From a virus (lineage: Duplodnaviria; Heunggongvirae; Uroviricota; Caudoviricetes): a stretch of DNA of 25,526 bases. A program made the translations under genes and the position numbers. This document shows positions 1,434-20,602 of the stretch, in pieces (position 1 is the stretch's first letter; each line of letters opens with the position of its first letter). The notes under the pieces were generated by a model. That model saw only the letters and a program-made list of their open reading frames with translations. It made no database searches and had not been told where the DNA came from. Where the stretch lies: the IMG/VR virus record IMGVR_UViG_2571042636_000011; one strand, written 5' to 3'.

Positions 1434-1448
1434 AGTTTCCTCCCGGTA

Positions 1449-2105: not shown

Positions 2106-2163
2106 TACTAATCACGACAAACAACGGCTCGCCACAAGCCATATCTAGAAGGAATGTTGCCTT

Positions 2164-2367: not shown

Positions 2368-2431
2368 TAGACGTCTATTTTCGCAATAAGACGCTGAGTT
2401 CGATTTTGCGATAAGTTCGGAGTTGAAAACC

Positions 2432-2941
2432 ATGTTTGATTACCAAGTTTCCAAACATCCACATTTTGATGAAGCCTGTCGTGCATTCGCACTGCGCCAC
2501 AATCTGGTGCAACTGGCAGAACGTGCGGGCATGAATGTGCAGATTCTGCGGAACAAGCTGAACCCAGCTCAACCTCATTTATTAACCGCACCAGAAATCT
2601 GGCTGCTTACCGATCTGACTGAAGATTCAACGTTGGTAGATGGTTTTCTGGCACAGATTCACTGCCTGCCATGCGTACCAATTAATGAGGTGGCAAAAGA
2701 GAAACTGCCACATTACGTCATGAGTGCAACCGCAGAGATCGGGCGTGTTGCTGCAGGTGCGGTATCTGGCGATGTAAAAACCAGTGCAGGTCGTCGTGAT
2801 GCTATCAGCAGCATTAACTCTGTAACACGACTGATGGCGTTGGCTGCTGTTTCATTGCAGGCCCGTTTACAGGCTAACCCTGCGATGGCGAGTGCAGTTG
2901 ATACCGTGACTGGCCTCGGTGCTTCATTCGGTTTGCTGTGA
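2432..2941 (+). CDS. cII: CII-like lysogeny-establishment transcriptional activator (phage 186 CII type)
   Basis: Protein [49 protein letters not shown]...[25 protein letters not shown]...[21 protein letters not shown] matches my recollection of 186 CII closely. ATG at 2432 with GGAG 9 nt upstream; the ORF track begins at an upstream TTG 2423. Confidence 0.8.
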
Positions 2942-2948
2942 GGTGCTT

Positions 2949-3245
2949 ATGCTGACGAAAGAACCATCATTTGCATCGCTGCTGGTAAAACAAAGCCCGG
3001 CAATGCACTACGGTCACGGCTGGATCACGGGTGAGGATGGAAAACGCTGGCATCCATGTCATTCACAAGATGAATTGCTGTCTGAATTGACCACGAGGAA
3101 ACGGAGAAAGTCCAAATGTATGCGGCAGAAAGTGAAGTGGTTTATCAGTTTCGTTACAGAGGGGAGAGTTATTCAGTACCTGAAGATGATTTGCTCTGTT
3201 GCTATCCGTCATTGTCGGGCGATGGCAGTTACTTTTTCGCGTTAA
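2949..3245 (+). CDS. Hypothetical early protein (position of 186 fil / P2 orf78)
   Basis: ATG 2949 (MLTKEPSFASLLVKQSPAMHYGHGWITGEDGKRWHPC...) with AGGTG upstream. The N-terminal about 55 aa look protein-like; the C-terminal part (KRRKSK...) overlaps the next ORF in another frame and looks low-complexity, so the true extent is uncertain. Confidence 0.35.
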   Translation: MLTKEPSFASLLVKQSPAMHYGHGWITGEDGKRWHPCHSQDELLSELTTRKRRKSKCMRQKVKWFISFVTEGRVIQYLKMICSVAIRHCRAMAVTFSR

Positions 3246-3340
3246 AGGATGGGACGTTTTTACGGGGAGAGCAGGTTAAAGAGACGATACGAAAAAATGT
3301 ATCTCCTCTTGAGCGTTACCGTAAGAACAAAGAACGATAG
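3116..3340 (+). CDS. Hypothetical early protein, 74 aa
   Basis: ATG 3116 preceded by GGAGAAAG. Translation MYAAESEVVYQFRYRGESYSVPEDDLLCCYPSLSGDGSYFFALKDGTFLRGEQVKETIRKNVSPLERYRKNKER has normal composition. Overlaps the upstream ORF by about 130 nt in a different frame. Confidence 0.4.
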   Translation: MYAAESEVVYQFRYRGESYSVPEDDLLCCYPSLSGDGSYFFALKDGTFLRGEQVKETIRKNVSPLERYRKNKER

Positions 3341-3362
3341 CTGCGTTTGGGGGATATGAAGT

Positions 3363-3704
3363 ATGGCAATTAATGGCGCTGCAGCAACTGTTCCATTAAG
3401 CCCCGGTGAACGCCTGAATGGACTTAATCACATTGCGGAGTTAAGGGCGAAAGTATTTGGCCTGAATATTGAGTCAGAGCTTGAGCGGTTTATTAAAGAT
3501 ATGCGTGATCCACGGGATATCAATAACGAACAGAATAAACGAGCACTGGCTGCCATATTCTTTATGGCAAAAATTCCAGCTGAACGTCATAGCATCAGCA
3601 TTAATGAGCTGACCACTGACGAAAAGCGGGAGTTGATTAAAGCAATGAATCATTTTCGTGCAGTGGTGAGCTTATTTCCCAGACGGCTAACCATGCCGAA
3701 TTAA
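3363..3704 (+). CDS. Hypothetical early-operon protein, 113 aa
   Basis: ATG 3363, same orientation and tight spacing as the other early genes. No family recognised from sequence. Confidence 0.5.
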   Translation: MAINGAAATVPLSPGERLNGLNHIAELRAKVFGLNIESELERFIKDMRDPRDINNEQNKRALAAIFFMAKIPAERHSISINELTTDEKRELIKAMNHFRAVVSLFPRRLTMPN

Positions 3705-3771
3705 CCAACTAATGAAATTAATGGCGTAAACCCGCCGGGTATCCCTTTATCTAAATTCAGGAGAATTGATT

Positions 3772-4005
3772 ATGCGTAATATTGAAACCCTCAAGACTAA
3801 AACCGGACCGGATGATGCAGGGCTTAATATTTTACTGACAGAGGCTCGTCTGGAAGAACGCCGGGCAAGGGCTGAAGCAATGGCAGCTCGCCTTGATAGC
3901 CTGGCGTGTCATATCACATCCCGCCAGCTAAACCACGTCGAAGCAGCAGAACTACTGCGTGTAACTGCTGAAGCAATCCAGAACGAAGCGCAGGAGATCC
4001 ACTAA
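3772..4005 (+). CDS. Hypothetical early-operon protein, about 77 aa, predicted helical
   Basis: ATG 3772 with CAGGAG 8 nt upstream (the ORF track starts at TTG 3766). Stop overlaps the start of the next gene (TAATG at 4003..4007). Charged, helical composition (EERRARAEAMAARLDSL...). Confidence 0.5.
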   Translation: MRNIETLKTKTGPDDAGLNILLTEARLEERRARAEAMAARLDSLACHITSRQLNHVEAAELLRVTAEAIQNEAQEIH

Positions 4006-4232
4006 TGGCTGATGCAATGGATCTCGTACAGCAGCGCGTTGAAGAAGAACGCCAGCGCCATATCCGTGCTGCCCGTGCCAAAACGCCGGGCGTGTCCCGC
4101 GTGCTTTGCATTGAGTGTGAAGCGCCAATTCCGCCAGCACGCCGCCGCGCCATTCCAGGTGTGCAGCTTTGCATTACCTGTCAGGAAATCGCAGAGCTGA
4201 AAGGCAAACATTACAACGGAGGTGCTGTATGA
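4005..4232 (+). CDS. TraR/DksA-family C4 zinc-finger protein (P2 orf82-like)
   Basis: 75 aa with CxxC...CxxC (CIECEAPIPPARRRAIPGVQLCITCQ), typical of phage and plasmid TraR/DksA-like proteins. AGGAG 7 nt upstream of ATG 4005. Stop TGA overlaps the dam start (ATGA at 4229..4232). Confidence 0.7.
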   Translation: MADAMDLVQQRVEEERQRHIRAARAKTPGVSRVLCIECEAPIPPARRRAIPGVQLCITCQEIAELKGKHYNGGAV

Positions 4233-5086
4233 GCACCATCCTGAAATGGGCGGGAAATAAAACCGCCGTAATGTCCGAACTGAAAAAACATCTTCCAGCT
4301 GGCCCGCGACTGGTTGAACCTTTCGCGGGTTCCTGTGCTGTGATGATGGAGACGGATTATCCCAGCTATCTGGTTGCGGATATTAATCCTGATTTAATCA
4401 ACCTCTATAAAAAGGTTGCCGCTGATTGTGAATCGTTTATATCTCGCGCCAGAGTTTTATTTAAGGAAGCAAACAGGGAGGTGGCTTATTACAACATAAG
4501 GCAGGAGTTTAATTACTCAACTGAAATTACTGATTTCATGAAAGCGGTATATTTCCTGTATCTCAATCGTCACGGTTACCGTGGGTTATGTCGCTATAAC
4601 AAGAGCGGGCATTTCAACATTCCCTACGGTAATTATAAAAATCCGTATTTCCCTGAAAAAGAAATTCGCGCATTTGCAGAGAAAGCCCAACGAGCAACGT
4701 TTATCTGCGCCAGCTTTGATGAAACGCTGGCGATGTTGAAGGCGGGGGATGTGGTGTATTGCGATCCGCCGTATGACGGTACGTTTTCCAGCTATCACAC
4801 TGATGGTTTCACTGAAGATGACCAGTATCACCTGGCATCCGTTCTTGAACATCGGTCATCAGAAGGACATCCGGTCATTGTTTCTAACAGTGACACATCC
4901 CTGATCCGTTCGCTGTATCGCAATTTTACTCACCACTACATCAAGGCAAAACGCAGCATCGGCGTAGCAGCTGGTGAGAGTAAATCTGCAACAGAAATCA
5001 TCGCTGTTTCTGGGGCGCGCTGCTGGGTGGGATTTGATCCTTCGCGTGGCGTGGATAGTTCTGCCGTGTACGGAGTACGTGCATGA
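4229..5086 (+). CDS. dam: DNA adenine (N6) methyltransferase, Dam family
   Basis: Start [11 protein letters not shown] (Dam motif I, KWAGGK-like) with GGAGG upstream of ATG 4229. Catalytic motif DPPY present ([10 protein letters not shown]). Length about 285 aa. Stop overlaps the start of the A gene (ATGA). Confidence 0.85.
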
Positions 5087-7497
5087 GACATGCTGATATG
5101 AACAACTGCAGCGGCTTTAACGAGGCCGCCGCAGCATTCTCATGGAACAGCCCGAAAAAGGCGATTAACCCTTATCTGGACCCGGCGGAAGTTGCGCCGG
5201 TTTCTGCGCTTTCAAACCTGATCACTCTGTACGCTGCCGATAACAAGCAGGAACAACTGCGCCGCGAGGCACTGAGTGATCAGGTCTGGGAGCGTTATTT
5301 CTTTAATGAATCCCGTGATCCTGTCCAGCGCGAAATGGAGCAGGATAAGCTCATTAGCCGGGCAAAGCTGGTGCATGAGCAGCAGCGTTTTAATCCGGAC
5401 ATGGTCATACTGGCGGACGTTAACGCCCAGCCTTCCCATATCAGCAAGCCGCTGATGCAACGTATTGAATACTTCAGCAGCCTGGGCAGGCCAAAGGCTT
5501 ATTCCCGCTATTTGCGTGAGACGATTAAACCATGTCTGGAACGACTAGAGCATGTACGCGACAGCCAGCTATCTGCATCTTTTCGTTTTATGGCAAGCCA
5601 TGAAGGGCTGGACGGCCTGCTGATCTTGCCTGAAATGAGTCAGGATCAGGTGAAGCGCCTGTCTACCCTTGTTGCCGCGCATATGAGCATGTGCCTTGAT
5701 GCAGCTTGTGGTGATTTGTATGCCACCGATGACGTTAAGCCAGAAGAAATCCGCAAGACATGGGAAAGGGTGGCGGCGGAAACCCTGCGTCTGGATGTCA
5801 TCCCTCCTGCGTTTGAGCAACTCCGCCGGAAAAGAAACCGCCGTAAACCCGTACCCTATGAACTCATTCCGGGTTCGCTGGCGCGTATGTTGTGCGCCGA
5901 CTGGTGGTATCGGAAATTATGGAAGATGCGTTTCGAATGGCGGGAAGAGCAGTTGCGTGCTGTTTGCCTGGTCAGCAAAAAAGCATCTCCCTATGTCAGC
6001 TATGAAGCCGTGATGCATAAACGTGAGCAGCGCCGTAAGTCGCTGGAGTTTTTCCGTTCTCATGAACTGGTGAACGAAGACGGCGACACGCTGGATATGG
6101 AGGACGTGGTAAACGCCAGTAGTAGCAACCCGGCGCATCGCCGCAATGAGATGATGGCATGTGTTAAAGGTCTGGAGCTTATCGCGGAAATGCGCGGTGA
6201 CTGCGCCGTTTTCTACACCATCACCTGTCCGTCACGTTTCCATTCCACGCTAAATAACGGCAGGCCCAACCCGAACTGGACAAATGCGACGGTAAGACAA
6301 AGCAGTGATTATCTGGTCGGCATGTTTGCTGCATTTCGTAAGGCGATGTACAAAGCCGGATTGCGCTGGTATGGCGTGCGGGTGGCTGAGCCGCATCATG
6401 ACGGTACAGTTCACTGGCACCTGTTGTGTTTTATGCGCAAAAAAGATCGCCGCGCCATTACTGCTTTGTTGCGTAAGTTTGCCATTCGTGAAGACCGCGA
6501 GGAGCTGGGTAATAACACAGGACCACGCTTTAAGTCTGAGCTGATAAACCCGCGCAAAGGTACACCAACAAGCTACATCGCGAAATACATCAGTAAGAAC
6601 ATTGACGGGCGTGGTCTGGCTGGCGAGATCAGCAAGGAAACGGGTAAATCTCTGCGTGATAACGCTGAATACGTTAATGCCTGGGCGTCTCTGCATCGTG
6701 TTCAGCAATTCCGCTTCTTTGGCATTCCGGGGCGTCAGGCTTACCGTGAACTGCGATTGCTGGCTGGTCAGGCGGCAAGGCAACAGGGTGACAAAAAAGC
6801 AGGTGCGCCGGTACTGGATAACCCGCGCCTTGATGCCATTCTGGCTGCAGCTGATGCTGGTTGCTTTGCCACCTACATCATGAAGCAGGGCGGCGTACTG
6901 GTTCCCCGTAAATATCACCTCATCAGAACCGCTTATGAAATCAACGAAGAGCCGACCGCCTATGGCGATCACGGTATTCGTATTTATGGCATCTGGTCAC
7001 CCATTGCAGAGGGCAAGATCTGCACTCATGCAGTGAAGTGGAAAATGGTCCGTAAAGCCGTTGACGTTCAGGAGGCGGCAGCCGACCAGGGCGCTTGCGC
7101 CCCTTGGACTCGTGGCAATAACTGTCCCCTTGCTGAAAATTTGTACCAACAAGGGAAAGACAAATCAGCTGATGGAGATACCAGAACGGATATCACCCGT
7201 ATGGATGACAAGGAGTTGCACGATTACCTGCACAGTATGAGCAAAAAAGAGCGCCGGGAACTGGCAGCAAGGTTACGCCTGGTGAAACCGAAACGGCGTA
7301 AAGACTACAAACAGCGAATTACAGATCATCAGCGACAGCAGCTCGTGTATGAACTGAAGTCCAGGGGATTTGATGGCAGCGAGAAAGAGGTCGATTTACT
7401 CCTTCGCGGCGGCAGTATTCCGTCAGGAGCAGGCCTGCGTATCTTCTATCGGAACCAGCGTTTGCAGGAAGATGATAAGTGGCGGAACCTGTATTAA
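5083..7497 (+). CDS. A: Rolling-circle replication initiator endonuclease (P2 gpA / 186 RepA family)
   Basis: 804-aa ORF after the early genes. Contains an HxH metal-binding motif ([11 protein letters not shown]) and a tyrosine-containing region ([17 protein letters not shown]), as in P2 A-type nickases. GGAG 7 nt upstream of ATG 5083. Confidence 0.9.
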
Positions 7498-7589
7498 TTA
7501 CGCGGGTTAACAATTCGTGCTCTTAATAATACCAGGCATTTCTGGCTGATGAACGTAAAAAAACGTTTTACATCAGTAAGATTATTATA

Positions 7590-7609
7590 TACTGTAAATA
7601 TAAACAGTG
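7590..7609. promoter_or_regulatory. LexA (SOS) box overlapping the promoter of the tum/dinI-like operon
   Basis: tACTGTaaatataaACAGtg is a perfect CTGT-N8-ACAG with an AT-rich spacer, a close match to the E. coli LexA consensus TACTGTATATATATACAGTA. It lies about 40 nt upstream of the GGAGG/ATG at 7641..7652; -35-like TTTACA at 7567..7572. Confidence 0.6.
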
Positions 7610-7649
7610 GTTATGTATACAGTATCGCTTTGGTGTCATAGGAGGAAAG

Positions 7650-7838
7650 ATGCAGGACTATTTTTTGGAGTCTTTGAAGCTCCAGCGCATTGATTTTTTT
7701 CTTAAGCTTGTAGCGGCTAGTGAGTGTAGTGATGAAGAGAAGGGGCTGGCTCTGCAGTGGGTTTCTGAATTGACTGATGAACTCATGGCAAAAATCAGAA
7801 CCCACGAATACAACCGCTCAATGGATGTCATCAGTTGA
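7650..7838 (+). CDS. Small SOS-controlled protein, candidate Tum-like antirepressor
   Basis: 62-aa ORF directly downstream of the LexA box, GGAGG 4 nt upstream of ATG 7650. Position corresponds to the LexA-regulated tum operon of phage 186. The sequence itself is not recognised, so the function is inferred from context. Confidence 0.4.
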   Translation: MQDYFLESLKLQRIDFFLKLVAASECSDEEKGLALQWVSELTDELMAKIRTHEYNRSMDVIS

Positions 7839-7848
7839 GGTGACTTTT

Positions 7849-8082
7849 ATGCGCATTGAAATAATGATCGATAAAGAGCAGAAGATTAGCCAGTCTACCC
7901 TGGACGCCCTTGAATCCGAGCTTTACCGCAATCTGCGCCCCCTGTATCCCAAAACGGTAATTCGTATCCGCAAAGGTAGCTCTAACGGTGTGGAACTGAC
8001 CGGACTGCAACTGGATGAAGAAAGAAAACAAGTGATGAAAATTATGCAGAAAGTGTGGGAAGACGACAGCTGGCTGCATTAA
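7849..8082 (+). CDS. dinI: DinI-family protein (SOS-response modulator)
   Basis: From ATG 7849 (GAGG 8 nt upstream): MRIEIMIDKEQKISQSTLDALESELYRNLRPLYPKTVIRIRKGSSNGVELTGLQLDEERKQVMKIMQKVWEDDSWLH. This aligns along its length with E. coli DinI as I remember it (MRIEVTIAK...DALAGEL...ETWESADDW). The ORF track gives a longer ORF from 7777. Confidence 0.75.
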   Translation: MRIEIMIDKEQKISQSTLDALESELYRNLRPLYPKTVIRIRKGSSNGVELTGLQLDEERKQVMKIMQKVWEDDSWLH

Positions 8083-8193
8083 GAAACGTTGCCTCCAGGA
8101 GGATTCATTCTGATGGGGGCTAGTTTGGGCAACGAGTGAAACGAGGCGTAAGGTGGGCGGGCATTTTGATAAGTGATCGTCCGCTTTGTGCTA

Positions 8194-8213
8194 GAAGCGG
8201 TCGTTACCGCTTC
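8194..8213. terminator. Hairpin between the convergent dinI-like and HerA-like genes (possible bidirectional terminator)
   Basis: GAAGCGGT-cgtt-ACCGCTTC, a perfect 8-bp stem with 4-nt loop. Only a weak T-run follows, so intrinsic terminator function is uncertain. Confidence 0.3.
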
Positions 8214-8226
8214 AGCACTTTGTTAA

Positions 8227-10086
8227 TTAGTGAGGGCTGGTTATTACGTAGTCGCTCTGGTCATCCTCTCCCAGCCTCTCAGGTATTAAATCGTTGAAGG
8301 AAATAGTATTACTCTTAGGTTTTTCTTCAATTGGAAGTTCAGCTACCCTTAATTTGAGCGGCATGGGGCAGACGATACCACTAAAAATACAGGTTCCTGT
8401 AGATAGCGTTGGAATCGACTCTTCAGTCAGTCGATCTATATATGATACTGATTTTTCAATTGCGTACAGATCATTCTGATTAATAAGGCGATGAATAAAA
8501 TAATTGTGTGCTTGGGATATGATTGTCGACGATATATCATTAGGGCGTTGACTGGAAATTGTGATAAAAACTCCAAATTTTCTCCCCTCCTTTATGATTT
8601 CCTCAAAAGTTTCCAGACGATAATCTCTCCAACTTTCCGTTTCCCGAAAAGAAGTATTAGACAAAATATTGTGGGCTTCATCTATAATGATGTGCAGTGT
8701 AGATTTCTCTGTAGACATTTTCTTCATATTGTAAGCCCACTTGGCTATCAAAAGAGGAAGCGTTTTTTTCATGGTTATATTAACCATATTTAGATTCACA
8801 ACCGTGAAATTATGTTCACCCCAAAAGTCAGACTGTCCGGAAGTATCAAATATTTTGGCTATATCTTTACGGTTAGCACTCATTCTATTTATAACTGGTG
8901 AAATATGTTCAGGGTTAGACTTGTTAGATAAATATTCCTGTATTAACTGTAAGTACATAAAGTCCAACAGTTCTTCAATCATATCAGTTTTAAATGAAAA
9001 ATTGCTTGCAAGACTGAATAGATAGGAGCGCTCAGTATCAGCTTCTGTATTGAAAATACTACCACCCCTCAATTTCCATTTATATGCAGTTGAATGATAC
9101 TCAAGATCAGATATAAGTTCTGGGTCATCTTTGAAAATTGGGCTAAGAAACTGATTTATAGTATCGCATTTGGGTTTGTCGCTACTAAAGAGATTTTGTC
9201 TGACTTTTTTCTTCAGGATATTGCGCATAAACTCAAGAGGATTATCAGCAGTCATCACTTTCTTGCGAAACTCAAGAACTCTCTTCAGGAAAGGTTTCTG
9301 TGTTTTGTCTGTTGCATCGGTTAGAACTGAGAGCATATCATGCTCAAGTAGAACCTCTCTGGGTAGAGGAAGTTTGTCACCATTTGCATGGTGCGTGTTG
9401 AGATTATAAACCGTCTTCTCGTCAGTAATACAGCGTGGGGCAGTATATTCTCCATTAAAGTCGAATAGAATAAATTTGCATCTTTCACTAAAGTGGTTGC
9501 CGAGAATATGTTTAACTTGGGCAATACCTGCTTTGTATAGCGCGGCTAGGGTATTTGACTTTCCGCTGCCTGTATTACCGAAAATGGCAATGTGGGAATT
9601 AATAAGACCATTGATTGGTAGTGCAATTTCAATATCTTCAAGATCTGTACGAGTAAACCTCATTACAGTTTCGTCTGCATCAGCTATCTGATGAACCGTC
9701 TGTATCATCTCTTCAGTTACCACGAAGACTTCATTGCCGATGAGAGGTAGTTCACGCGAACCACCAATGAAGCAACCAGTACGATCAATGTAACCCGTAA
9801 GAGTAGAGGTCAGGTATCGCCGATATCGCCAGGCATCACTGCCGCTCCCAGCGAGATGTTTTTCCTCAATGATTCGTTCCGCTTCAACCTTGCCGATCAG
9901 GCTCATGAAACCTTTTTTGATCTCAATGAAGCTACCCACTGATACATTTCTTAGAACTTTTCCCTGATAAAACAAGTCACTGAGATTTTTGTTTTTATCG
10001 ACCAAAATTGTCACAGCGCGTCCAGAAACCTCACAGACTTCGCCTATACGGAGCACCGCTTCCTCTTCAGTAAAATGCCTGCTCAT
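8227..10086 (-). CDS. herA: HerA-like ATPase (HAS-barrel plus RecA-like P-loop NTPase), predicted partner of the upstream SIR2-like protein
   Basis: About 619 aa from ATG 10086..10084, which overlaps the SIR2 stop (ATGA); GGGAGG upstream. Walker A AIFGNTGSGKSNT and Walker B LHIIIDEAHN. N-terminal beta-rich segment (RIGEVCEVSGRAVTILVDK...GSFIEIKKGFMSLIGKVEAERI) is consistent with a HerA HAS barrel. AT-rich codon usage unlike the phage core. Confidence 0.75.
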   Translation of the reverse strand: MSRHFTEEEAVLRIGEVCEVSGRAVTILVDKNKNLSDLFYQGKVLRNVSVGSFIEIKKGFMSLIGKVEAERIIEEKHLAGSGSDAWRYRRYLTSTLTGYIDRTGCFIGGSRELPLIGNEVFVVTEEMIQTVHQIADADETVMRFTRTDLEDIEIALPINGLINSHIAIFGNTGSGKSNTLAALYKAGIAQVKHILGNHFSERCKFILFDFNGEYTAPRCITDEKTVYNLNTHHANGDKLPLPREVLLEHDMLSVLTDATDKTQKPFLKRVLEFRKKVMTADNPLEFMRNILKKKVRQNLFSSDKPKCDTINQFLSPIFKDDPELISDLEYHSTAYKWKLRGGSIFNTEADTERSYLFSLASNFSFKTDMIEELLDFMYLQLIQEYLSNKSNPEHISPVINRMSANRKDIAKIFDTSGQSDFWGEHNFTVVNLNMVNITMKKTLPLLIAKWAYNMKKMSTEKSTLHIIIDEAHNILSNTSFRETESWRDYRLETFEEIIKEGRKFGVFITISSQRPNDISSTIISQAHNYFIHRLINQNDLYAIEKSVSYIDRLTEESIPTLSTGTCIFSGIVCPMPLKLRVAELPIEEKPKSNTISFNDLIPERLGEDDQSDYVITSPH

Positions 10087-11126
10087 CTCGAGCCTCCCAG
10101 ATAGCACGTGATAATGTTATTCATTACCGGAAAATCAACATTTCTTCCCGGCCGATAAATAATCTCTACGTTTGAGTAATCCCGAAATTTCTCCATAAAG
10201 CCGTTAACACTGGCCTCATCGAAAGCAAAGATCAGTAGCTTCAGGGTGGCGTTGCGCAGGGCTTTTTTAGTTATCGTTTCAATGTGCTCATCAGCAAACG
10301 AGAACCCAAAGACAATTAGTAAAGTTGCTTCTTTATCAAGCTCGTTGGAATAGGTTCTCAGTAAATCATAATAAACGTTCTGTAGTAGAGTCTCTTTAAA
10401 CTTCTCCTTACGTGGAAGAATAAGTGCATGAGCAAGTACCCATCCTTTCATTTCGGCTAGGGTGGGAAAGTCAAGCGGCTTAATATCTGCAATACGATAA
10501 ATGATTTTCCCTTTAGAATGCTGCCAAGAGAGCGAACCATGAAGTTTTATAAGGTTAACAGTAGGAAGCTCAACTTTATAATTATACAGATTTCCGGTTG
10601 CACTTACAGAATGATTAAAGCTACCCGCATCAAATTCCGCATCTCCCAAAATACTTGCTCTTCTATTGAATCCATCATTAAAAAGAATATTGTTATTACG
10701 TGTGGCAGCTTCTTCGATGAATAAATCATAATTAGTTGTAAAAACGTTAATACGCCTCGGAAGTAGGCCAGTTCGGCGGCGGGTCAGTATCTTTTCCAGT
10801 GAAGACATAAATGCATCATAATTTGCACGGGTACATTCCAAATCGGTGATCACCTGAGGTGCGAAGGGGGTGCCGTAGCCGCGCTTCAACATGCATTCAT
10901 GAGGTAGCCAAACATCTGACAAAAAGTCAGCTGCCATCCTTAAGTATTCATCTTCCTGTTCATCATTAATAAGCTGCTGAAGATCCGTTTCGATTGTCCC
11001 CAGTACTTTAATCGCTGGGAGGGATGCACCTGATCCGATGAGAAAGTTAATGTTAGCTGACTGAAATATCCGCTCTAAGTAGTCTCGGTCACTATCGTTA
11101 CCGTAGTATGCGCGCTTGACTGCCAT
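10083..11126 (-). CDS. SIR2-like (sirtuin-fold, predicted NAD+-consuming) defence effector protein
   Basis: About 347 aa from ATG 11126..11124 (AAGGA SD; the ORF track starts at TTG 11141). Gly-rich NAD-binding loop FLIGSGASLP, the TTNYD motif (VFTTNYDLFIEEA) and a candidate catalytic His in KLHGSLSW, as in defence-associated SIR2 domains. Coupled to the HerA-like gene. Confidence 0.75.
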   Translation of the reverse strand: MAVKRAYYGNDSDRDYLERIFQSANINFLIGSGASLPAIKVLGTIETDLQQLINDEQEDEYLRMAADFLSDVWLPHECMLKRGYGTPFAPQVITDLECTRANYDAFMSSLEKILTRRRTGLLPRRINVFTTNYDLFIEEAATRNNNILFNDGFNRRASILGDAEFDAGSFNHSVSATGNLYNYKVELPTVNLIKLHGSLSWQHSKGKIIYRIADIKPLDFPTLAEMKGWVLAHALILPRKEKFKETLLQNVYYDLLRTYSNELDKEATLLIVFGFSFADEHIETITKKALRNATLKLLIFAFDEASVNGFMEKFRDYSNVEIIYRPGRNVDFPVMNNIITCYLGGSR

Positions 11127-11426
11127 CTTATCCTTCCACAAAACATTGGATTAGTCTGTAATTTATTTAATCTTAACGCCGAGCTCAATACTTTAACATC
11201 ACTTCTTCTGGCGATTGCTATGAGCCCTTCTTGATAAAAAGTTCGATCGGGAAACTGATCCTTTATGCCACAAGTTTTCTAGCTATCCTCAAAAAATTGG
11301 TGTTAAAACTGTGCCAACAAAGTTGCAAGGTTCGCTTCTCGCTCACAGCGAACTTTCATCTTTGTAAACCCGTATGATTCGCTTTTCAGCAGTCATTCAG
11401 ATACGGATTTACGCTTCCCTTGGCAG

Positions 11427-11456
11427 CGCATGACTATGACGCATGAGATCGCATGA
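11427..11456. repeat. Three direct repeats of CGCATGA at 13- and 10-nt spacing
   Basis: cgcatgactatgacgcatgagatcgcatga. Copies start at 11427, 11440 and 11450, in the non-coding region about 100 bp left of the candidate cos sequence. Function unknown. Confidence 0.4.
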
Positions 11457-11551
11457 TCGTTTAAGGATCGTTTTTGCTGAAGTCAGCCAGAACTGGCGTG
11501 CTTTTGCTTATGTCATGCAGGTGCATGAAAACCACTACATAAAGCGGGCAG

Positions 11552-11570
11552 GCGTGGCGGGGATACGAGC
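11552..11570. other. Candidate cohesive-end (cos) site of the P2/186 type
   Basis: GGCGTGGCGGGGATACGAG followed by GC-rich CGCGCGC. The first 13 nt match the start of the 19-nt P2/186 cos overhang as I remember it (P2 GGCGAGGCGGGGAAAGCAC). It lies in the prophage position between the right-end accessory genes and Q. Identification is from memory and unverified. Confidence 0.3.
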
Positions 11571-11650
11571 GCGCGCAATGCTATGATCTGGCTCTTTCAA
11601 AACTGTTAACGGTTCTTCACATTCTTAAATGATCATGGTAGCTTAAGCAT

Positions 11651-11781
11651 GCACATGTAGGCAGATTTGTTGGTTGTGGTATCGCAATCAGTGATCTAAA
11701 TGTTAGATGGATTCGCCTTCTGACATCCTTGTAGCCATTCTTGGGCTGTCCTATGCTTTGCGTAAGAGTGCCTACATGTGC
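11651..11781 (+). ncRNA. msr-msd: Retron msr-msd non-coding RNA (template for msDNA), bounded by a1/a2 inverted repeats
   Basis: 13-bp inverted repeat GCACATGTAGGCA (11651..11663) and TGCCTACATGTGC (11769..11781) flanks about 105 nt, immediately upstream of the RT gene (starts 11817), which is the canonical a1-msr-msd-a2-RT arrangement. The 5' part (CATGTAGGCAGATTTGTTGGTTGTG..ATCGCAA.CAGTG) resembles an enterobacterial retron msr that I recall. Exact ends are approximate. Confidence 0.5.
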
Positions 11782-11816
11782 CTACCCTAACTGATAATCA
11801 AGGTTGATTTTTAGAT

Positions 11817-13574
11817 ATGGCACCCCTATCAATTTTAGAACGTTTACAAAACGCTGCTAACAGGCAAGATTTGGCTAGTATCTTGAATCTTAAAACTGCT
11901 TTTCTTACGGATGTTATTTATCGTTTAAAAGCTGAAACGCAGTATACACAATTTACTATCCCTAAAAAAAACGGAGCGCCGAGAGTCATATCAGCACCTA
12001 CCACTAAGCTCAAAGATATTCAACGTAGATTAGCTGATGTTTTATATTTATGTCGTGCAGAAATTTATAAAAAATATAATATTAATCCAGTTTTATCTCA
12101 TGGGTTTGAAAAAGAAAAGTCAATTATTACGAATGCTGAACGGCATAGAGGTAAAACGCTACTACTAAATATAGACCTTGAGGATTATTTTGATAGTTTT
12201 AATTTTGGACGTGTTAGAGGTTTTTTCTTATCAAACAGAGATTTTAGATTAAATAATACTGTTGCTACAACGATCGCACAAATTGCATGTTTTCAGAATG
12301 GACTTCCTCAAGGAAGCCCATGCTCTCCAATTATAAGTAACTTAATCAGTGGAATTCTTGATATAAGATTATCAAAGTTAGCAAAGAAATACGGATGCAA
12401 TTATTCACGGTATGCTGATGATCTTACATTTTCAACTAATAAAAAAACATTTCCAAAAGAGATTGCTGATGTTGGCGGAGAGTCTGTAACCCTAAGTCCA
12501 ACTTTAATTAAAGAGATTATAAAGGCTGGCTTTAAAATAAATGATAAAAAGACAAGGGTTTGTTATAAAACATCACGACAAGATGTTACTGGGTTGACTG
12601 TTAATAAAAAAGTGAATGTTGGCAAAGAATATGCAAAAGTAACGCGTGCCATGGCTCATTCTCTTTATAAAGATGGTTCTTTTGTTATTGTTACTGAATC
12701 AGGAAAGATTGAAAAAGGTACATGTGCTAAATTAGAAGGCCGTTTTGGATTTATTGACTCAATAGATAAATATAATAATTTAAAACTAAAGAACGCAAGA
12801 CAGTTGGAAAAGTACCAAAGTGTAAATCATGGATTAAACTACACTGCAAAATTGAATTCGAGAGAAAAAGCCTACAGTTATTTTCTATACTATAAAAATT
12901 TTCATGGAATGGAAATGCCAACAATACTCACTGAGGGTAAAACAGACCGTGTATATTTAAAGTGTGCTTTGAAGTCATTGGCGAATTCATATCCTTTATT
13001 GTTTAATTCTTCTGATGATAGCTCTAAAAATGAGTATCGTGTTAATTTTTTTAAAGCAACTGAAAAAACAAGCTATTTTCTTGACATTTCTGGCGGTGCT
13101 ACAGACTTCAAAAGATTTATATTAAGATACCAAGAACAAAAAAAGAGGTTCGAGAAATTTAAACCAAAGCACCCTGTTATTATGCTTCTTGATAATGACT
13201 CAGGCCCTAAAGATTTATTAAATCACTTAAAGGATAAAGTAAAAAATTGTCCAAATGATGTTGATACTATTCGTAAGGCAAGGTATACCCACATATTTGA
13301 CAATCTCTATTTGTTATTAACACCATTGCTTCCTGGAGGGAAAGAGTCTTGTATGGAGGATTTATTTGATAGCACGGTACTATCAACGGTGCTTGATGGA
13401 AAGACATTTAATAAATCTAATGATACGGATACAAAAACAGAATATGGTAAGCATGTGTTTTCAACAAAGGTTATAAAGGCAAATTGTAAAACAATTAGTT
13501 TTGAAAAGTTTAAAGTTATTTTTGATGGTATTGAGGAAATTATTGCAGATTATTCAAAGAGGTGCAAAGTATAA
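11817..13574 (+). CDS. ret: Retron-type reverse transcriptase with a C-terminal TOPRIM-like (OLD-family-like) domain, 585 aa
   Basis: RT motifs seen in the translation: motif A LLLNIDLEDYFDSF, motif B QGLPQGSPCSPIISNL, motif C YSRYADDLTFS (YADD). C-terminal about 250 aa contain a conserved Glu motif (ILTEGKTDRVYLK) and a DxD motif (MLLDNDSGP), consistent with a TOPRIM fold. Very AT-rich codon usage. Confidence 0.9.
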   Translation: MAPLSILERLQNAANRQDLASILNLKTAFLTDVIYRLKAETQYTQFTIPKKNGAPRVISAPTTKLKDIQRRLADVLYLCRAEIYKKYNINPVLSHGFEKEKSIITNAERHRGKTLLLNIDLEDYFDSFNFGRVRGFFLSNRDFRLNNTVATTIAQIACFQNGLPQGSPCSPIISNLISGILDIRLSKLAKKYGCNYSRYADDLTFSTNKKTFPKEIADVGGESVTLSPTLIKEIIKAGFKINDKKTRVCYKTSRQDVTGLTVNKKVNVGKEYAKVTRAMAHSLYKDGSFVIVTESGKIEKGTCAKLEGRFGFIDSIDKYNNLKLKNARQLEKYQSVNHGLNYTAKLNSREKAYSYFLYYKNFHGMEMPTILTEGKTDRVYLKCALKSLANSYPLLFNSSDDSSKNEYRVNFFKATEKTSYFLDISGGATDFKRFILRYQEQKKRFEKFKPKHPVIMLLDNDSGPKDLLNHLKDKVKNCPNDVDTIRKARYTHIFDNLYLLLTPLLPGGKESCMEDLFDSTVLSTVLDGKTFNKSNDTDTKTEYGKHVFSTKVIKANCKTISFEKFKVIFDGIEEIIADYSKRCKV

Positions 13575-13585
13575 CTGTAATCACA

Positions 13586-13607
13586 GGCAAAGAGTATGCT
13601 CTTTGCC
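13586..13607 (+). terminator. Hairpin terminator between the convergent RT and Q genes
   Basis: GGCAAAGAG-tatg-CTCTTTGCC, a perfect 9-bp stem, followed by TTGTATTGT. Located 12 nt after the RT stop and 17 nt before the Q stop on the other strand. Confidence 0.5.
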
Positions 13608-13623
13608 TTGTATTGTGGGACGA

Positions 13624-14655
13624 TTACATATCTAAGTTATATTCTGTAAATGCGATAATATCTGTACCTAACCAGACATTAATCTCCTTGATCCGTTTTT
13701 GCATTGATATCAATTCGTTTCTTACGAATACTTTACTAGCCTTTTCCACATCCCCAAATCCCCCGACATTATTTGGCATTATCCCCATCATCTGTGGCGG
13801 AACGCGATGTGCTGCCATCATGTCATCCCGGCTCACGTTCTTGATATTTAGAAACTCATCCTTCGCCGCAACTTCTGACAAAGGGATGATCTGAAGGCCG
13901 TCCTTTTTGCCGTTAGGCGAGTACATAAACAGGTTGCGGAAGTTACCCGGACCTTTGGCACTTTTCATTGCATTGCGGAGGTTGTTCACGTCCTCCTGGT
14001 TCTGCGCAGCATCGGTCATGTACATGATGAAGCCTGCATGACTACCGTTAATGTAATACTTGCGGCGGAACAGCGTGGCGGACTCATTGAGCAGGGCGGA
14101 CGGAATGGCAGAAAGATAGCCGGGTAGGCCGTAGATCTCCTGGTTAATGTCCGGTTCCATCAGATGAAAAATGCTACCTTTCGTGAACTGATACGGCTGG
14201 GTTGTCATACCATATTGCACAAACCAGTAGGTATCCAGGTCTAACCCGCGTCGGGTGTATTTTGCCAGAGCAGGCTCAAGGGCGATAACTTCACCGAAGC
14301 GGTTCGTGCGTTTCTCCAGGTAGGCGTTACCAAATACCAGATAGTCCTGCACAAAACGTGAAAAAGCCTGCTGGCTGAGCAGCGGGTGAGGGATGTAGGT
14401 ACTGGTCAGAATGTTGCATTTTACTGCAATCGGTGAGCTGTGATGCACGGCAGCGCGGAAGGTTCGTGCCAGTCCGTCAAAGCTGACGGGCGGCTCATAC
14501 CAGCGGTCCATCTGTACGCATTCCATATAGTCCAGCAGTTCACGGCGGTCCAGAACAGGAACGGGATCGCCAAAGCTGAATGCTTCGGCTGAAGTCTGGC
14601 TTTTATGCTTGAGCTGATTCGTCGCCGCAGCGCGGTTTTTCTTACTCTTTCCCAT
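13624..14655 (-). CDS. Q: Portal (capsid portal vertex) protein, P2 gpQ family
   Basis: About 343 aa, the size and position of P2 Q (first packaging gene beside the cos region, transcribed leftward with P). ATG at 14655..14653; the ORF track starts at TTG 14658. Start overlaps the P stop. Confidence 0.85.
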   Translation of the reverse strand: MGKSKKNRAAATNQLKHKSQTSAEAFSFGDPVPVLDRRELLDYMECVQMDRWYEPPVSFDGLARTFRAAVHHSSPIAVKCNILTSTYIPHPLLSQQAFSRFVQDYLVFGNAYLEKRTNRFGEVIALEPALAKYTRRGLDLDTYWFVQYGMTTQPYQFTKGSIFHLMEPDINQEIYGLPGYLSAIPSALLNESATLFRRKYYINGSHAGFIMYMTDAAQNQEDVNNLRNAMKSAKGPGNFRNLFMYSPNGKKDGLQIIPLSEVAAKDEFLNIKNVSRDDMMAAHRVPPQMMGIMPNNVGGFGDVEKASKVFVRNELISMQKRIKEINVWLGTDIIAFTEYNLDM

Positions 14656-16421
14656 CAAAAAATCTCCACAATATTGCTGGTATTGGCGGATTCGCCCTGC
14701 AGCGGTTCGTTAAACAGTGCGTGCATCGTTGCCCAGGCCAGATCGGCGTGGCTGGCTTCTTCGCTGCGGCTGGCTTCATAGGTCGGGCGGTTGCCGCTGG
14801 CGGTGGTGGCGCGACGGATTGCCATGAATGACTGCGCAATGTCGGTGTGCCCGGCGTCAAACTCCAGACGGCGGTGGCTGATAATGTCGTAGGCCTTGAG
14901 TACCAGGGCGTTTTTAACATTGGGGTTGTAGACAAACTCCCGGACGGCAGGAAAGAACGCTTTCACGTTCTCATAAACCCCGTGACCAACGCCGGTTGAG
15001 TCGATACCGATATAGGTCACGTTGTACTGTTCGGTGAGTTTTTTGATGGCGTCAGCCTGGGCGCGGAAGTCCATCCCGCGCCACTGGTGACGCTCAAGAA
15101 TGCGGAACTTACCACCCGGCACGGCTGGCGGAGCCACCACCACGCATCCGGCACTGTCGCCGTTCTGCGTACCTTTTGCCGGGTCATAACCGATCCACAC
15201 TTCGCGCCAGCCAAACGGGCGTAGGGCCAGTGCATGAAAGTCGGTCCAGACTTCCCAGCTGTCCACCATGCACGCCTGCAGTTCGCTGAGCGGGAACACG
15301 GACGCGAGATCGTCCACGAACTCGCACATCAACAGGTTCTGGTATTCGTCCGGGCTGTACTCCATGCGTAGCTGGTCGAGGTCGAACAGGTTACAGCCGC
15401 CGCGCACCGCATCTTCCACGGTGACTATCTGGCGGTATTGCCCATCTGCGCACAGCAGGCCGGGGGCCAGATTGCTGTGGGACAGGTCGATGTCCACCTT
15501 GTCAGCTTTGTTGCGTCCACGGTTGAACAGCGCACCGGACCAGAACGGATAAGCACTGTGGGTCAGGCTGGATGGCGTGGAAAAATAGGTTTGTCGCCAT
15601 TTTTTGTGAATAGCCATCCCGGAAGCCACTTTGCGCAGCTCCTGGAATTTCGGTATCCAGAAATATTCATCCAGATACAGGTTGCCGTGATAACTCTGGG
15701 CCGTGCGGGCATTGGTGCCGAGGAAGTAAAGCGTGGCTCCGTTAGGAAGCACCATCGGATCGCCTTTTAGCTCCACCTCGACTTCTTTGGCGAAGTCGAT
15801 GATGTATTGTTTAAAGACGTGGGCCTGAGCCTTACTGGCAGAAAGGAAAATCTGGTTACGTCCGGTAAGCAGGGCGTCAATCAGGGCTTCACGGGCAAAA
15901 TAGAAGGTCGCGCCGATCTGGCGTGACTTCAGCAGGTTGCGGATGCGGTTGGTTTTTCCGGCTTCCCACCAGTGGCGCTGGTAGTTGAACATGGAGGAAT
16001 GGAAGATTTCTTCCAGCTTCTCAATCTGCTCATCGGTGAAAACATTCTTTTCCGGCTGACGGCGTGGGCCTTTATTGCGGTTGGCGACGTTAGGGTTTAA
16101 GTCGGCTTCGTTGCCGCCATTGTTAAACTTGCCGATCCGCGCGTGGCGCTCAGACTGGCGCGCCAGCAGGTCAATCTCTTTGAAATCTTTCCCTTCTTTG
16201 TGCTCCTTCATAATGAGCTGGCAGTAGCGTGCGGCGGTGGTGAGCTGCATCTGATCCAGCGGCCCATAGTCACCCCACTTGTCGCGTTTTTTCCAGCTGT
16301 GAACGGTTGCAACTTTCTCGCCCAGCATTTCAGCAATGCGGGCTACGCGGTATCCCTGAAAGTACAGCAGCATGGCCTGCCGACGGGGATCGAGATCTGC
16401 GGGTGTCAGTGTGGTGTTCAT
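14655..16421 (-). CDS. P: Terminase large (ATPase) subunit, P2 gpP family
   Basis: 588 aa, between Q and the divergent O gene as in P2. N-terminal HTH-like MLLYFQGYRVARIAEMLGEKVATVHSWKKR and a large nuclease/ATPase body. Confidence 0.9.
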   Translation of the reverse strand: MNTTLTPADLDPRRQAMLLYFQGYRVARIAEMLGEKVATVHSWKKRDKWGDYGPLDQMQLTTAARYCQLIMKEHKEGKDFKEIDLLARQSERHARIGKFNNGGNEADLNPNVANRNKGPRRQPEKNVFTDEQIEKLEEIFHSSMFNYQRHWWEAGKTNRIRNLLKSRQIGATFYFAREALIDALLTGRNQIFLSASKAQAHVFKQYIIDFAKEVEVELKGDPMVLPNGATLYFLGTNARTAQSYHGNLYLDEYFWIPKFQELRKVASGMAIHKKWRQTYFSTPSSLTHSAYPFWSGALFNRGRNKADKVDIDLSHSNLAPGLLCADGQYRQIVTVEDAVRGGCNLFDLDQLRMEYSPDEYQNLLMCEFVDDLASVFPLSELQACMVDSWEVWTDFHALALRPFGWREVWIGYDPAKGTQNGDSAGCVVVAPPAVPGGKFRILERHQWRGMDFRAQADAIKKLTEQYNVTYIGIDSTGVGHGVYENVKAFFPAVREFVYNPNVKNALVLKAYDIISHRRLEFDAGHTDIAQSFMAIRRATTASGNRPTYEASRSEEASHADLAWATMHALFNEPLQGESANTSNIVEIF

Positions 16422-16467
16422 GGCACAAACCTACAGCCTTGAATGACGGCTTTCCCCGCCTGCGGTT

Positions 16468-16485
16468 TGTGTGGTTGTCGGTACA
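16468..16485. promoter_or_regulatory. TGT-N12-ACA element in the divergent P/O late promoter region (candidate Ogr/Delta-type activator site)
   Basis: TGTgtggttgtcggtACA in the 142-bp P-O intergenic region. P2-family late promoters carry TGT-N12-ACA activator sites around -55. Which of the two promoters it serves is unresolved. Confidence 0.35.
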
Positions 16486-16563
16486 AATACCGCGCATTGT
16501 TTCACTGCCCCCATCACCGCAACCATAAGGCTCCAGTAAGTTTTTTCTAACGGAGCACGGCTC

Positions 16564-17397
16564 ATGACAGTGAAAGCAAAGCGTTTTCGCATCGGGGTGG
16601 AAGGTGCCACCACCGACGGACGCGAAATCCAGCGTGAATGGCTGGAACAGATGGCAGCCAGCTACAACCCGGCGGTGTATACCGCGCTGATTAACCTTGA
16701 GCACATCAAGTCTTATCTGCCGGACAGCACCTTTAACCGCTACGGCAAGGTGACGGCGCTGTTTGCTGAAGAAATCACGGAAGGTCCGCTGGCAGGCAAG
16801 ATGGCGCTGTATGCCGACGTTGAGCCAACGGAGTCCCTGGTGGAACTGGTGAAAAAAGGCCAGAAATTATTCACCTCTATGGAAGTCAGCCCGAAGTTCG
16901 CTGATACGGGCAAAGCCTACCTGGTCGGCCTGGCTGCCACTGATGACCCTGCCAGTCTGGGCACTGAAATGCTGACATTCAGCGCCAGTGCAGCCCATAA
17001 CCCGCTGGCAAACCGCAAGCAGAATCCCGCCAATCTTTTTACCGCTGCAGAGGAAACGGTGATCGAACTGGAAGAAATCCAGGATGACAAACCGTCCCTG
17101 TTTGCCCGTGTCACGGCGCTGTTCACCAAAAAAGAGCAGTCCGATGACGCCCGGTTCTCTGATGTGCATAAGGCCGTGGAGCTGGTCGCCACTGAGCAGC
17201 AGAACCTGAGTGCGCGCACCGAAAAATCCCTGTCTGAGCAGGAAGAACGTCTGTCTGAGCTGGAGACTGCCCTGCAGGCACAGCAGACCGCCTTTAACGA
17301 ACTGGTGGACAAGCTGAGCCATGAAGACAGCCGCCAGGACTACCGCCAGCGTGCAACAGGCGGTAACGCCCCCGCTGACACTCTGACCAATTGCTGA
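16564..17397 (+). CDS. O: Capsid scaffolding protein, P2 gpO family
   Basis: 277 aa, first gene of the rightward head operon. GGAG 8 nt upstream of ATG 16564. Coiled-coil-like central region (EQQNLSARTEKSLSEQEERLSELETALQAQQTAF). Confidence 0.85.
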   Translation: MTVKAKRFRIGVEGATTDGREIQREWLEQMAASYNPAVYTALINLEHIKSYLPDSTFNRYGKVTALFAEEITEGPLAGKMALYADVEPTESLVELVKKGQKLFTSMEVSPKFADTGKAYLVGLAATDDPASLGTEMLTFSASAAHNPLANRKQNPANLFTAAEETVIELEEIQDDKPSLFARVTALFTKKEQSDDARFSDVHKAVELVATEQQNLSARTEKSLSEQEERLSELETALQAQQTAFNELVDKLSHEDSRQDYRQRATGGNAPADTLTNC

Positions 17398-17413
17398 TGG
17401 AGCACAAAACCTG

Positions 17414-18472: not shown

Positions 18473-18475
18473 TCC

Positions 18476-19126: not shown

Positions 19127-19221
19127 CAGAACGTGCCCCCGCGCACGGGCGGCACGGGGTGGCGAAAGGCACCGCCACATCAAAACCCCGTCCACCGCCC
19201 TCTATTTCAGGAGAAAGCAGC

Positions 19222-20601: not shown

Positions 20602-20602
20602 A

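Follow-up and report, generated by a model that had tools for sequence, protein, structure and literature searches.

Two adjacent minus-strand genes in a DNA stretch of 25,526 nucleotides from a virus (IMG/VR record IMGVR_UViG_2571042636_000011; this whole stretch is referred to as the window) raise the question of whether they form an anti-phage defence system, or whether the pairing of their products has a different meaning. A first-pass annotation had claimed a two-gene operon of the SIR2-HerA type. This claim is supported by PADLOC profiles, Pfam, the fold matches of AlphaFold models and the conserved pairing of both genes, and it is very probable that the locus represents a complete and intact SIR2-HerA (Nezha-family) abortive-infection defence system, encoded on a self-contained 3.2-kb cassette in a prophage hotspot. 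The positions of the individual features are compiled in Table 1.

Table 1. Features of the SIR2-HerA locus (positions within the window).
Feature	Position	Strand	Remarks
SIR2-HerA cassette, whole	8187..11357	minus	3.17 kb, 40% G+C; from blastn against E. coli island locus L010
Upstream region	11127..11357	minus	231 bp; travels with both genes; inside the stretch shared with the E. coli island
SIR2 gene	10083..11126	minus	347 aa; ATG at 11126, TGA at 10085..10083
GSGAS NAD-binding loop	11036..11022	minus	SIR2, by translation
TTNYD (N132)	10739..10725	minus	SIR2, by translation
KLHGS (H196)	10547..10533	minus	SIR2, by translation
GGGAGG Shine-Dalgarno for HerA	10093..10098	minus	within the 3′ end of the SIR2 gene; contained in CTGGGAGGCTCGAGATGA
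ATGA stop/start overlap, SIR2/HerA	10083..10086	minus	read directly from the sequence
HerA gene	8227..10086	minus	619 aa; ATG at 10086, TAA at 8229..8227
Walker A GNTGSGKS (K176)	9579..9556	minus	HerA, by translation
D209-x-x-G-E213-Y motif			HerA protein
Walker B IIIDE (D469/E470)	8691..8677	minus	HerA, by translation
Stem-loop, possible transcript-end hairpin	8188..8218	minus	13-bp stem, 8 nt past the HerA stop, without T-run

The ATGA overlap, which had been claimed at 10083..10086, could be confirmed as SIR2 stop and HerA start, with the minus strand across the junction reading CTGGGAGGCTCGAGATGA. The Shine-Dalgarno sequence GGGAGG (10098..10093) is located 6 nt 5′ of the HerA ATG, and by its arrangement the overlap is expected to couple the translation of SIR2 and HerA. 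The RefSeq annotation of a locus with 100% identity across 8100..11300 contains the identical two CDSs with the identical 4-nt overlap, and a 4-nt overlap was also found in the homologous SIR2/HerA pairs from Steroidobacter and Klebsiella. Longer versions of the two ORFs with TTG or GTG starts (352 and 626 aa) were dropped for the ATG starts, as both the PADLOC profiles and RefSeq begin at the ATG versions; the previously given lengths of 347 and 619 aa agree with these profile starts. In RefSeq the pair is named only 'SIR2 family protein' and 'ATP-binding protein'. The stem-loop behind the HerA gene has a predicted RNA fold of -21.2 kcal/mol (z = -4.5 versus shuffles) and was missed by the terminator scan because it carries no T tail. 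The promoter of the pair presumably lies within 11127..11357. A minus-strand match to the sigma-70 consensus of at least 9/12 could not be found in this region, and overall counts were not above those of shuffles.

The 347-aa protein matches Pfam SIR2_2 (PF13289) with 48.3 bits (cut-off 24.5) and the PADLOC SIR2 profile PDLC04080 over profile positions 1-347 of 347 (E = 6.3e-211). All SIR2 hallmarks that had been claimed (GSGAS, TTNYD, KLHGS) are present by translation and recur among the homologues as invariant G-x-G-A-S, TTNYD and K-x-HGS: in 36 SIR2 homologues, with identities down to 40%, residues G31, G33, A34, S35, T130-D134, K194 and H196-S198 do not vary. As the motifs of SIR2 and likewise those of HerA form invariant columns in the homologue alignments, they are not chance matches. 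A sequence search of the PDB returned for this protein exclusively Sir2 from SIR2-HerA complexes. In the alignment with S. aureus Sir2 from this search, the candidate catalytic Asn and His correspond to N226 (N132) and H287 (H196), and T131 corresponds to T225. N226 and H287 are the proposed catalytic dyad of the S. aureus enzyme, and its H287A variant has lost NADase activity (PMC11514289). With the AF2 model of the protein (pLDDT 86.4), the best 39 Foldseek matches were SIR2 chains of solved SIR2-HerA complexes, the best of them being 8yhx, 8sub, 8j4u and 8wld (E. coli Nezha, S. aureus and Paenibacillus complexes). The next structural neighbours after SIR2-HerA were KomBC, DSR2 and ThsA, all of them solved phage-defence complexes. 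A placement outside the SIR2 fold, which had been named as evidence against the claimed operon, was thus checked by Pfam and Foldseek, and the protein falls inside this fold.

As a Rossmann-type SIR2 fold and an Asn/His catalytic pair are common to deacetylase sirtuins too, the protein might be a CobB-like housekeeping sirtuin, which would regulate proteins of the phage or host as an NAD+-dependent deacylase, instead of an effector that depletes NAD+. This appears highly improbable, because Pfam assigns it to SIR2_2, the branch that occurs in defence systems, rather than to canonical SIR2. A match to the latter family (PF02146) was absent from the 347-aa protein at E<=0.01. Furthermore, the protein contains only three cysteines, which are scattered (78, 98, 341), and so cannot form the Cys4 zinc module found in true sirtuins. 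As neither a PF02146 match nor a zinc module is present, a canonical sirtuin deacylase was rejected, and the structural neighbourhood, which lies entirely within phage-defence complexes, as well as the obligate pairing with HerA also speak against it.

For the 619-aa protein, Pfam DUF87 'Helicase HerA central domain' (PF01935) was found with 70.1 bits (cut-off 23.2), and PADLOC HerA PDLC04097 gave an end-to-end match (E = 6.1e-267). Translation also confirms the claimed motifs Walker A and Walker B, and neither varies among 30 HerA homologues with identities down to 50%. The HAS-barrel-like N-terminus, which had also been claimed, is consistent with the AF2 model (pLDDT 81.3), in which residues 13-122 are predicted to be almost all beta strand. 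Sequence matches in the PDB comprised HerA of SIR2-HerA and DUF4297-HerA complexes and archaeal HerA. The alignment of the model with solved HerA proteins spans about its entire length. The profile and structure searches which the first-pass annotation had proposed as a check were run for both proteins, and the best matches of the models were solely SIR2 and HerA chains of solved anti-phage complexes.

HerA belongs to the same superfamily as FtsK, and the 619-aa protein shows weak Pfam matches to FtsK_SpoIIIE (20.6 bits, cut-off 24), TrwB_AAD_bind (17.5 bits, cut-off 20.5) and AAA_10 (16.0 bits, cut-off 27.5). These matches could point to a DNA-translocating ATPase of a mobile element (a coupling protein or a VirB4/TraG-like, FtsK-like or partition ATPase) whose pairing with SIR2 would be incidental. 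All three matches are, however, below threshold, and those to FtsK_SpoIIIE and TrwB reach no further than the P-loop stretch (about residues 168-223), whereas the HerA central domain scores far over its cut-off and the PADLOC HerA profile is matched from end to end. The fold search points in the same direction, as the best 50 Foldseek matches were all HerA chains, led by the HerAs of defence complexes. A conjugation or partition ATPase family, which the first-pass annotation had named as a contrary outcome, was not found at threshold. Pfam, PADLOC and the fold search effectively refute this reading, to which we assign hardly any probability at all.

The genomic distribution of the pair fits with the assignment as SIR2 and HerA of one defence system. 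The cassette is 91% identical (blastn over 8187..11357) to a locus in E. coli 873.10 (L010), a non-prophage island which adjoins ypjA and is otherwise unrelated. In Steroidobacter, Klebsiella and a metagenome, with SIR2 identities of 42-62% and a different mobile context in each case, the SIR2 gene likewise has a DUF87/HerA gene behind it, and the pair is also present on plasmids of Pantoea, Yersinia and Enterobacter. Thirteen complete E. coli genomes contain the cassette with at least 99% identity. These sequence comparisons show the SIR2-HerA pair to be mobile, as a 3.2-kb cassette with precise boundaries that passes between a prophage, chromosomal islands and plasmids. The presence of the cassette on conjugative and mobilizable plasmids could again be taken as a hint of a translocating ATPase, but the order of SIR2 and then HerA with the 4-nt overlap is kept across distant taxa and varied contexts, and no other transfer genes are consistently adjacent. 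In sequenced phage genomes the cassette had no megablast match, and tblastn yielded only distant SIR2 genes (~30% identity) of Streptococcus phages. As a close match is absent there, the cassette is one that is seen in prophages and not in deposited phage records.

The claimed prophage context is real, as judged by a RefSeq-annotated P2-family relative, a prophage which is 98% identical over 22 kb to the one carrying the locus. Its gene order is replication endonuclease, hypothetical gene, DinI-like gene, the cargo (HerA, SIR2 and retron Ec67 RT), portal, terminase and P2-family capsid. In P2-family prophages, the region between the replication-side (gpA) and portal genes is known as a defence hotspot (Rousset et al., 2022; PMC9122126). 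The base composition of the hotspot cargo is foreign, with a G+C of 0.33-0.40 (0.40 for the cassette) versus 0.50-0.56 for the phage backbone. In this P2/186-like E. coli prophage, the cassette is cargo of the known, variable defence hotspot, where the SIR2-HerA pair lies back to back with an adjoining defence gene of the retron Ec67 family (RT-Toprim). An Rfam search for the RNA of this neighbouring retron gave nothing at the gathering score and only chance-level matches at E<=10.

Among the characterised systems, E. coli Nezha (PDB 8J4U, 8SU9, 8SUB, 8UAE) has the same two-gene layout of SIR2 then HerA and, for SIR2 as for HerA, belongs to the best structural matches. Common to both are the SIR2_2-type NADase fold with G-x-G, TTNYD-type Asn and catalytic His, and the HerA plan, in which a HAS-barrel-like N-terminus is combined with a RecA-like core that carries Walker A/B. 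Their sequences are nevertheless far apart, with identities in structural alignments of ~17-19% for SIR2 and 15-18% for HerA and a weak sequence match of Nezha Sir2 (E = 1.5e-11, residues 109-300). The Nezha proteins have 415 aa (SIR2) and 610 aa (HerA). Nezha is a 12:6 oligomer gated by ATP, whereas the locus described here is known from sequence, fold and context. By sequence, the closest solved SIR2 is that of S. aureus Sir2-HerA (PDB 8YHO/8YHX; PMC11514289; E = 3.5e-21), of which the HerA chain is also among the best fold matches to the HerA of the locus. As residues 94-318 of the query align to 190-396 of this 428-aa target, the 347-aa SIR2 lacks ~95 residues in the segment that connects the GSGAS loop to TTNYD. 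The S. aureus system comes from a Gram-positive host and was not prophage-borne in that study (PMC11514289). The best solved HerA is that of Paenibacillus sp. 453MF (PDB 8W9L, 8WIV, 8WLD; PMC11472057; sequence E = 1.2e-27, fold E = 1.3e-28), which with 696 aa and a C-terminal extension is longer than the 619 aa found here; its SIR2 matches only weakly by sequence (E = 8.5e-05). Across all solved homologues the identity is ~16-21% in structural alignments, and by sequence only SIR2 residues 94-318 align confidently with S. aureus Sir2. The SIR2 is compact, with 347 aa compared to 381-428 aa in solved homologues. In DUF4297-HerA (PDB 8XAU, 8ZIQ, 9C1M) the HerA partner is homologous, but the effector is a DUF4297 nuclease, while that of the locus is clearly SIR2.

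The E. coli Sir2-HerA types I-III (Zhang et al., 2026; PMC13434337) are divergent lineages distinct from Nezha, which were found by the same criterion of sir2-herA adjacency. The catalytic Sir2 N238 and the HerA residues K188/D218 of type III correspond to N132, K176 and probably D209, and as these residue numbers differ, an assignment of the locus to type III was ruled out. Type III is gated by a trigger plus nickase. Searches of the literature with the RefSeq accessions of both proteins found no paper mentioning them.

By analogy with the characterised systems, we infer complex assembly, stoichiometry, the NADase, ATPase and nuclease activities, trigger and defence phenotype of this lineage. 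SIR2 and HerA would be made in a coupled fashion from one transcript, and HerA, as a hexameric ring ATPase, would dock a ring of SIR2 subunits to give a large complex. In healthy cells this complex would be inactive, in characterised systems via HerA-bound ATP. Upon phage infection, N132 and H196 of SIR2 would hydrolyse NAD+ to ADP-ribose and nicotinamide, and HerA may add ATPase and DNA-directed activities. The infected cell would stop growing and the superinfecting phage would fail, by which the lysogen population and the resident prophage would be protected. NAD+ depletion and abortive infection have been described as the mechanism of Nezha, the Paenibacillus system and E. coli types I-III (PMC11472057, PMC11514289, PMC13434337). 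Formation of the Paenibacillus complex activates NADase, nuclease, ATPase and helicase (PMC11472057), and at a high multiplicity of infection types I-III give a collapse that resembles abortive infection (PMC13434337).

A true SIR2-HerA homologue could, on the other hand, act mainly as an addiction or stabilisation module, or belong to a lineage without measurable anti-phage protection in the laboratory. In the E. coli survey, only four of eight clusters (Nezha and types I-III) protected against the 110-phage panel (PMC13434337), and stabilisation modules are common on mobile elements and plasmids such as those carrying the cassette. Yet failure on one phage panel does not show a lack of function. 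Both ORFs are intact, the catalytic residues are invariant with clear purifying selection down to 40-50% identity, and the cassette is not only nearly unchanged in the 13 complete E. coli genomes but also situated in a hotspot where anti-phage systems predominate. We therefore regard this possibility as improbable and favour an active defence system. Rather speculative, and in our view unlikely, is the idea that the compact lineage is a mechanistically distinct SIR2-HerA subtype with its own trigger, HerA activity and stoichiometry, as is type III, and that it might cooperate with the adjacent retron Ec67-family system.

Both the SIR2-HerA system type and its home in a P2-like prophage hotspot are already catalogued, and the system is an ordinary one. 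Given its distance from every solved structure, this lineage could be a useful reference as the subtype diversity of SIR2-HerA emerges, a use which would be incremental. The main gain is correct annotation, as the gene pair labelled in RefSeq is a recognisable SIR2-HerA defence system. Moreover, SIR2-HerA and the retron Ec67-family RT-Toprim illustrate clearly how two defence systems can be stacked in one prophage hotspot.

The interval 8227-11126, which the first-pass annotation had proposed to be a SIR2-HerA-type defence operon, is taken up by two minus-strand ORFs with SIR2 upstream and HerA downstream. The minus strand at their junction reads CTGGGAGGCTCGAGATGA, and therefore a single ATGA at 10086..10083 holds both the stop codon of SIR2 and the start codon of HerA. 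A GGGAGG ribosome-binding site lies 6 nt 5′ of the HerA ATG. RefSeq holds the identical two CDSs with the identical 4-nt overlap, the locus being 100% identical over 8100..11300. The proposed two-ORF layout and ATGA overlap (10083..10086) were matched exactly by the ORF listing, the read sequence and RefSeq, and all motifs that had been named for both proteins were found on translation.

Features of the window; prophage genes follow the RefSeq annotation of a near-identical prophage, not an ORF-by-ORF reading of the window
Feature	Position	Strand	Source
SIR2 ORF, 347 aa	ATG 11126 to TGA 10085..10083	-	ORF listing
SIR2 GSGAS	11036..11022	-	translation
SIR2 TTNYD	10739..10725	-	translation
SIR2 KLHGS	10547..10533	-	translation
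HerA ORF, 619 aa	ATG 10086 to TAA 8229..8227	-	ORF listing
HerA Walker A GNTGSGKS	9579..9556	-	translation
HerA Walker B IIIDE	8691..8677	-	translation
Retron Ec67 (Eco2)-family RT-Toprim gene, complete, 585 aa	11817..13574	+	PADLOC and PDB matches
Integrase; CI, CII, Fil regulators	left side of near-identical prophage		RefSeq annotation
Dam methylase	about 4169..5086		RefSeq annotation
Replication endonuclease	5083..7497		RefSeq annotation
DinI-like gene	ends 8082		RefSeq annotation
Portal, terminase, P2-family capsid, lysis, tail genes	after retron in near-identical prophage		RefSeq annotation

The 347-aa protein, predicted to adopt a SIR2 fold, was indeed placed there by profile and predicted-structure searches. 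It scored above threshold against Pfam SIR2_2 (48.3 bits, cut-off 24.5), did not match the canonical sirtuin family in the Pfam profile search, and was covered by the PADLOC SIR2 model PDLC04080 over 347/347 profile positions (E=6.3e-211). As its cysteines number just three and are scattered, it contains no zinc module. Every PDB sequence that it matched is the Sir2 subunit of a solved SIR2-HerA complex (S. aureus 8YHX; E. coli Nezha 8J4U/8SU9; Paenibacillus 8W9L). The AlphaFold2 model, built from an alignment of 36 homologues (lowest identity 40%), was confident (pLDDT 86.4, pTM 0.87), and its best 39 Foldseek matches in the PDB were without exception SIR2 chains of SIR2-HerA complexes, followed by chains of KomBC, DSR2 and ThsA, which are solved phage-defence complexes. 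In the same alignment G31, G33, A34, S35, T130-D134, K194 and H196-S198 are invariant, and the FGFSFADEH motif (from residue 273) is mostly so. Aligned to S. aureus Sir2, residues N132, T131 and H196 correspond to N226, T225 and H287. In the S. aureus protein N226/H287 are the proposed catalytic dyad, T225 and H287 contact ADP-ribose, and mutation of H287 abolishes NAD+ hydrolysis (PMC11514289).

For the 619-aa protein, the suggested HerA-like ATPase was likewise upheld by both kinds of search. The Pfam 'Helicase HerA central domain' was matched with 70.1 bits (cut-off 23.2), and the PADLOC HerA model PDLC04097 spans the protein end to end (E=6.1e-267). PDB sequence matches comprised HerA of SIR2-HerA and DUF4297-HerA defence complexes and archaeal HerA; a single further hit, to TdpA, was weak (E=1.9e-4). 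The best 50 Foldseek matches of its AlphaFold2 model (pLDDT 81.3) were all HerA chains, headed by the Paenibacillus, S. aureus and E. coli SIR2-HerA complexes. In this model residues 13-122, forming the N-terminal domain ahead of a RecA-like core, are almost all beta, which is consistent with the HAS barrel suspected from the sequence. Across 30 homologues there is no variation in Walker A (G170-T179), in a D209-F-N-G-E213-Y motif or in Walker B (D469/E470). That this protein might be a conjugation or partition ATPase was considered and rejected, since profile, PDB and fold matches place it in HerA; the FtsK_SpoIIIE, TrwB and AAA_10 profiles all scored below their Pfam cut-offs, with the matches of the first two restricted to the P-loop stretch.

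The pair is conserved well beyond this prophage. On the contigs of three distant SIR2 homologues, from Klebsiella (62% SIR2 identity; contig bearing IS1 and Rep3), Steroidobacter (44%; island with integrase and relaxase) and a metagenome (42%; island with integrase), the gene directly behind SIR2 is in all three a DUF87/HerA gene, about 600-620 aa long, and the 4-nt overlap recurs in the Klebsiella and Steroidobacter loci. Plasmids of Pantoea, Yersinia, Enterobacter and other enterobacteria carry the pair at 68-76% DNA identity. Among 5426 complete E. coli genomes 18 contain it at full length, thirteen at ≥99% identity including the P2-backbone flank; in others, e.g., 873.10, a copy of 91% identity lies beside ypjA in a different island, with a restriction endonuclease gene adjoining. 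This non-prophage island of 873.10 (NZ_CP061754.1 1191079-1206174), a probable defence island, additionally holds genes for a TPR protein and an ankyrin-repeat protein and IS1/IS3 elements. Aligning the prophage and 873.10 contexts set the limits of the mobile cassette to 8187..11357, i.e., the two genes flanked by 231 bp on the upstream and 40 bp on the downstream side. Within those 40 bp a minus-strand hairpin (8188..8218; 13-bp stem, -21.2 kcal/mol, z=-4.5) lies 8 nt past the HerA stop codon, and its position coincides precisely with the left end of the cassette. Lacking a T-run, it does not qualify as a canonical intrinsic terminator.

Every sequence-level and context-level defining feature of the SIR2-HerA family is present, and the first-pass observation is fully confirmed. 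The lineage is divergent, being about 16-21% identical to the solved homologues, and its SIR2 is shorter (347 aa versus 381-428 aa), lacking roughly 95 residues that S. aureus Sir2 has between the glycine loop and TTNYD. Assignment to the E. coli type III lineage was rejected, as the type III catalytic residues are Sir2 N238 and HerA K188/D218 (Zhang et al., PMC13434337). The lineage may belong to type I, to type II or to one of the four E. coli Sir2-HerA clusters for which that study saw no protection. Near-identical full-length models of both proteins are included in a public defence-annotation library, and the system type, mechanism and prophage-hotspot habitat have been published. It appears rather unlikely that the lineage has a distinct gating logic or cooperates with the adjacent retron.

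The tests made here covered domain identities and catalytic residues, and the mechanism is drawn from homology. In Paenibacillus, the assembly of SIR2 rings with a HerA hexamer reaches about 1.1 MDa (PMC11472057), and in S. aureus a helix lying over the Sir2 active site opens when HerA binds (PMC11514289). Cellular ATP masks the activities of Nezha (as summarised in PMC13434337). In E. coli type III the HerA nickase is triggered by phage SSB (Gp2.5) or Gp5.9, and DNA ends then lead to ATP consumption, which lifts the NADase block (PMC13434337). By analogy, the locus most likely follows this general logic: the complex would be inactive before infection, would hydrolyse NAD+ via N132 and H196 upon infection, and would thereby arrest the infected cell.

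The window is a P2/186-like prophage over 1..8082 and 13624..25526. Over 22 kb (3363..25526) it shares 98% identity with a prophage that RefSeq annotates next to rcdA in E. coli PS3Tanimalfeces2. The integrase and immunity region (50..3080) shares just 89-93% identity with it, which suggests a mosaic left arm. The order there is DinI-like gene, HerA, SIR2 and retron Ec67-family RT. The RT-Toprim gene, divergent from the cassette, matches PADLOC RT-Toprim_I-C (E=2.7e-223) and the PDB 'Retron Ec67 protein' 9LM3/9I2F (E=5e-217), and as it adjoins the cassette, the hotspot holds a stack of two defence systems. Just 5′ of the gene, a perfect inverted repeat of 13 bp (GCACATGTAGGCA at 11652..11664, TGCCTACATGTGC at 11769..11781) encloses about 130 nt of structured sequence (about 11651..11782; -55.1 kcal/mol, z=-4.0), which resembles the msr/msd non-coding RNA but was matched by no Rfam family. 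The spacer of about 290 bp between cassette end and putative retron RNA (11358..11650) has no ORF of at least 60 aa, just ORFs of 47-48 aa and several short hairpins; it may represent a retron promoter or a recombination scar, or have another role. G+C contents of 40% in the cassette, 33% in the retron region and 50-56% in flanking phage genes delimit a low-G+C island (8187..13600), which fits two cargo modules acquired independently. The site corresponds to the variable locus that P2-like phages use as a reservoir of anti-phage systems, and at the analogous P4 hotspot SIR2+HerA is one of the cargo systems listed (Rousset et al., PMC9122126). Protection of the lysogen by a prophage-borne SIR2-HerA system would fit this hotspot picture.
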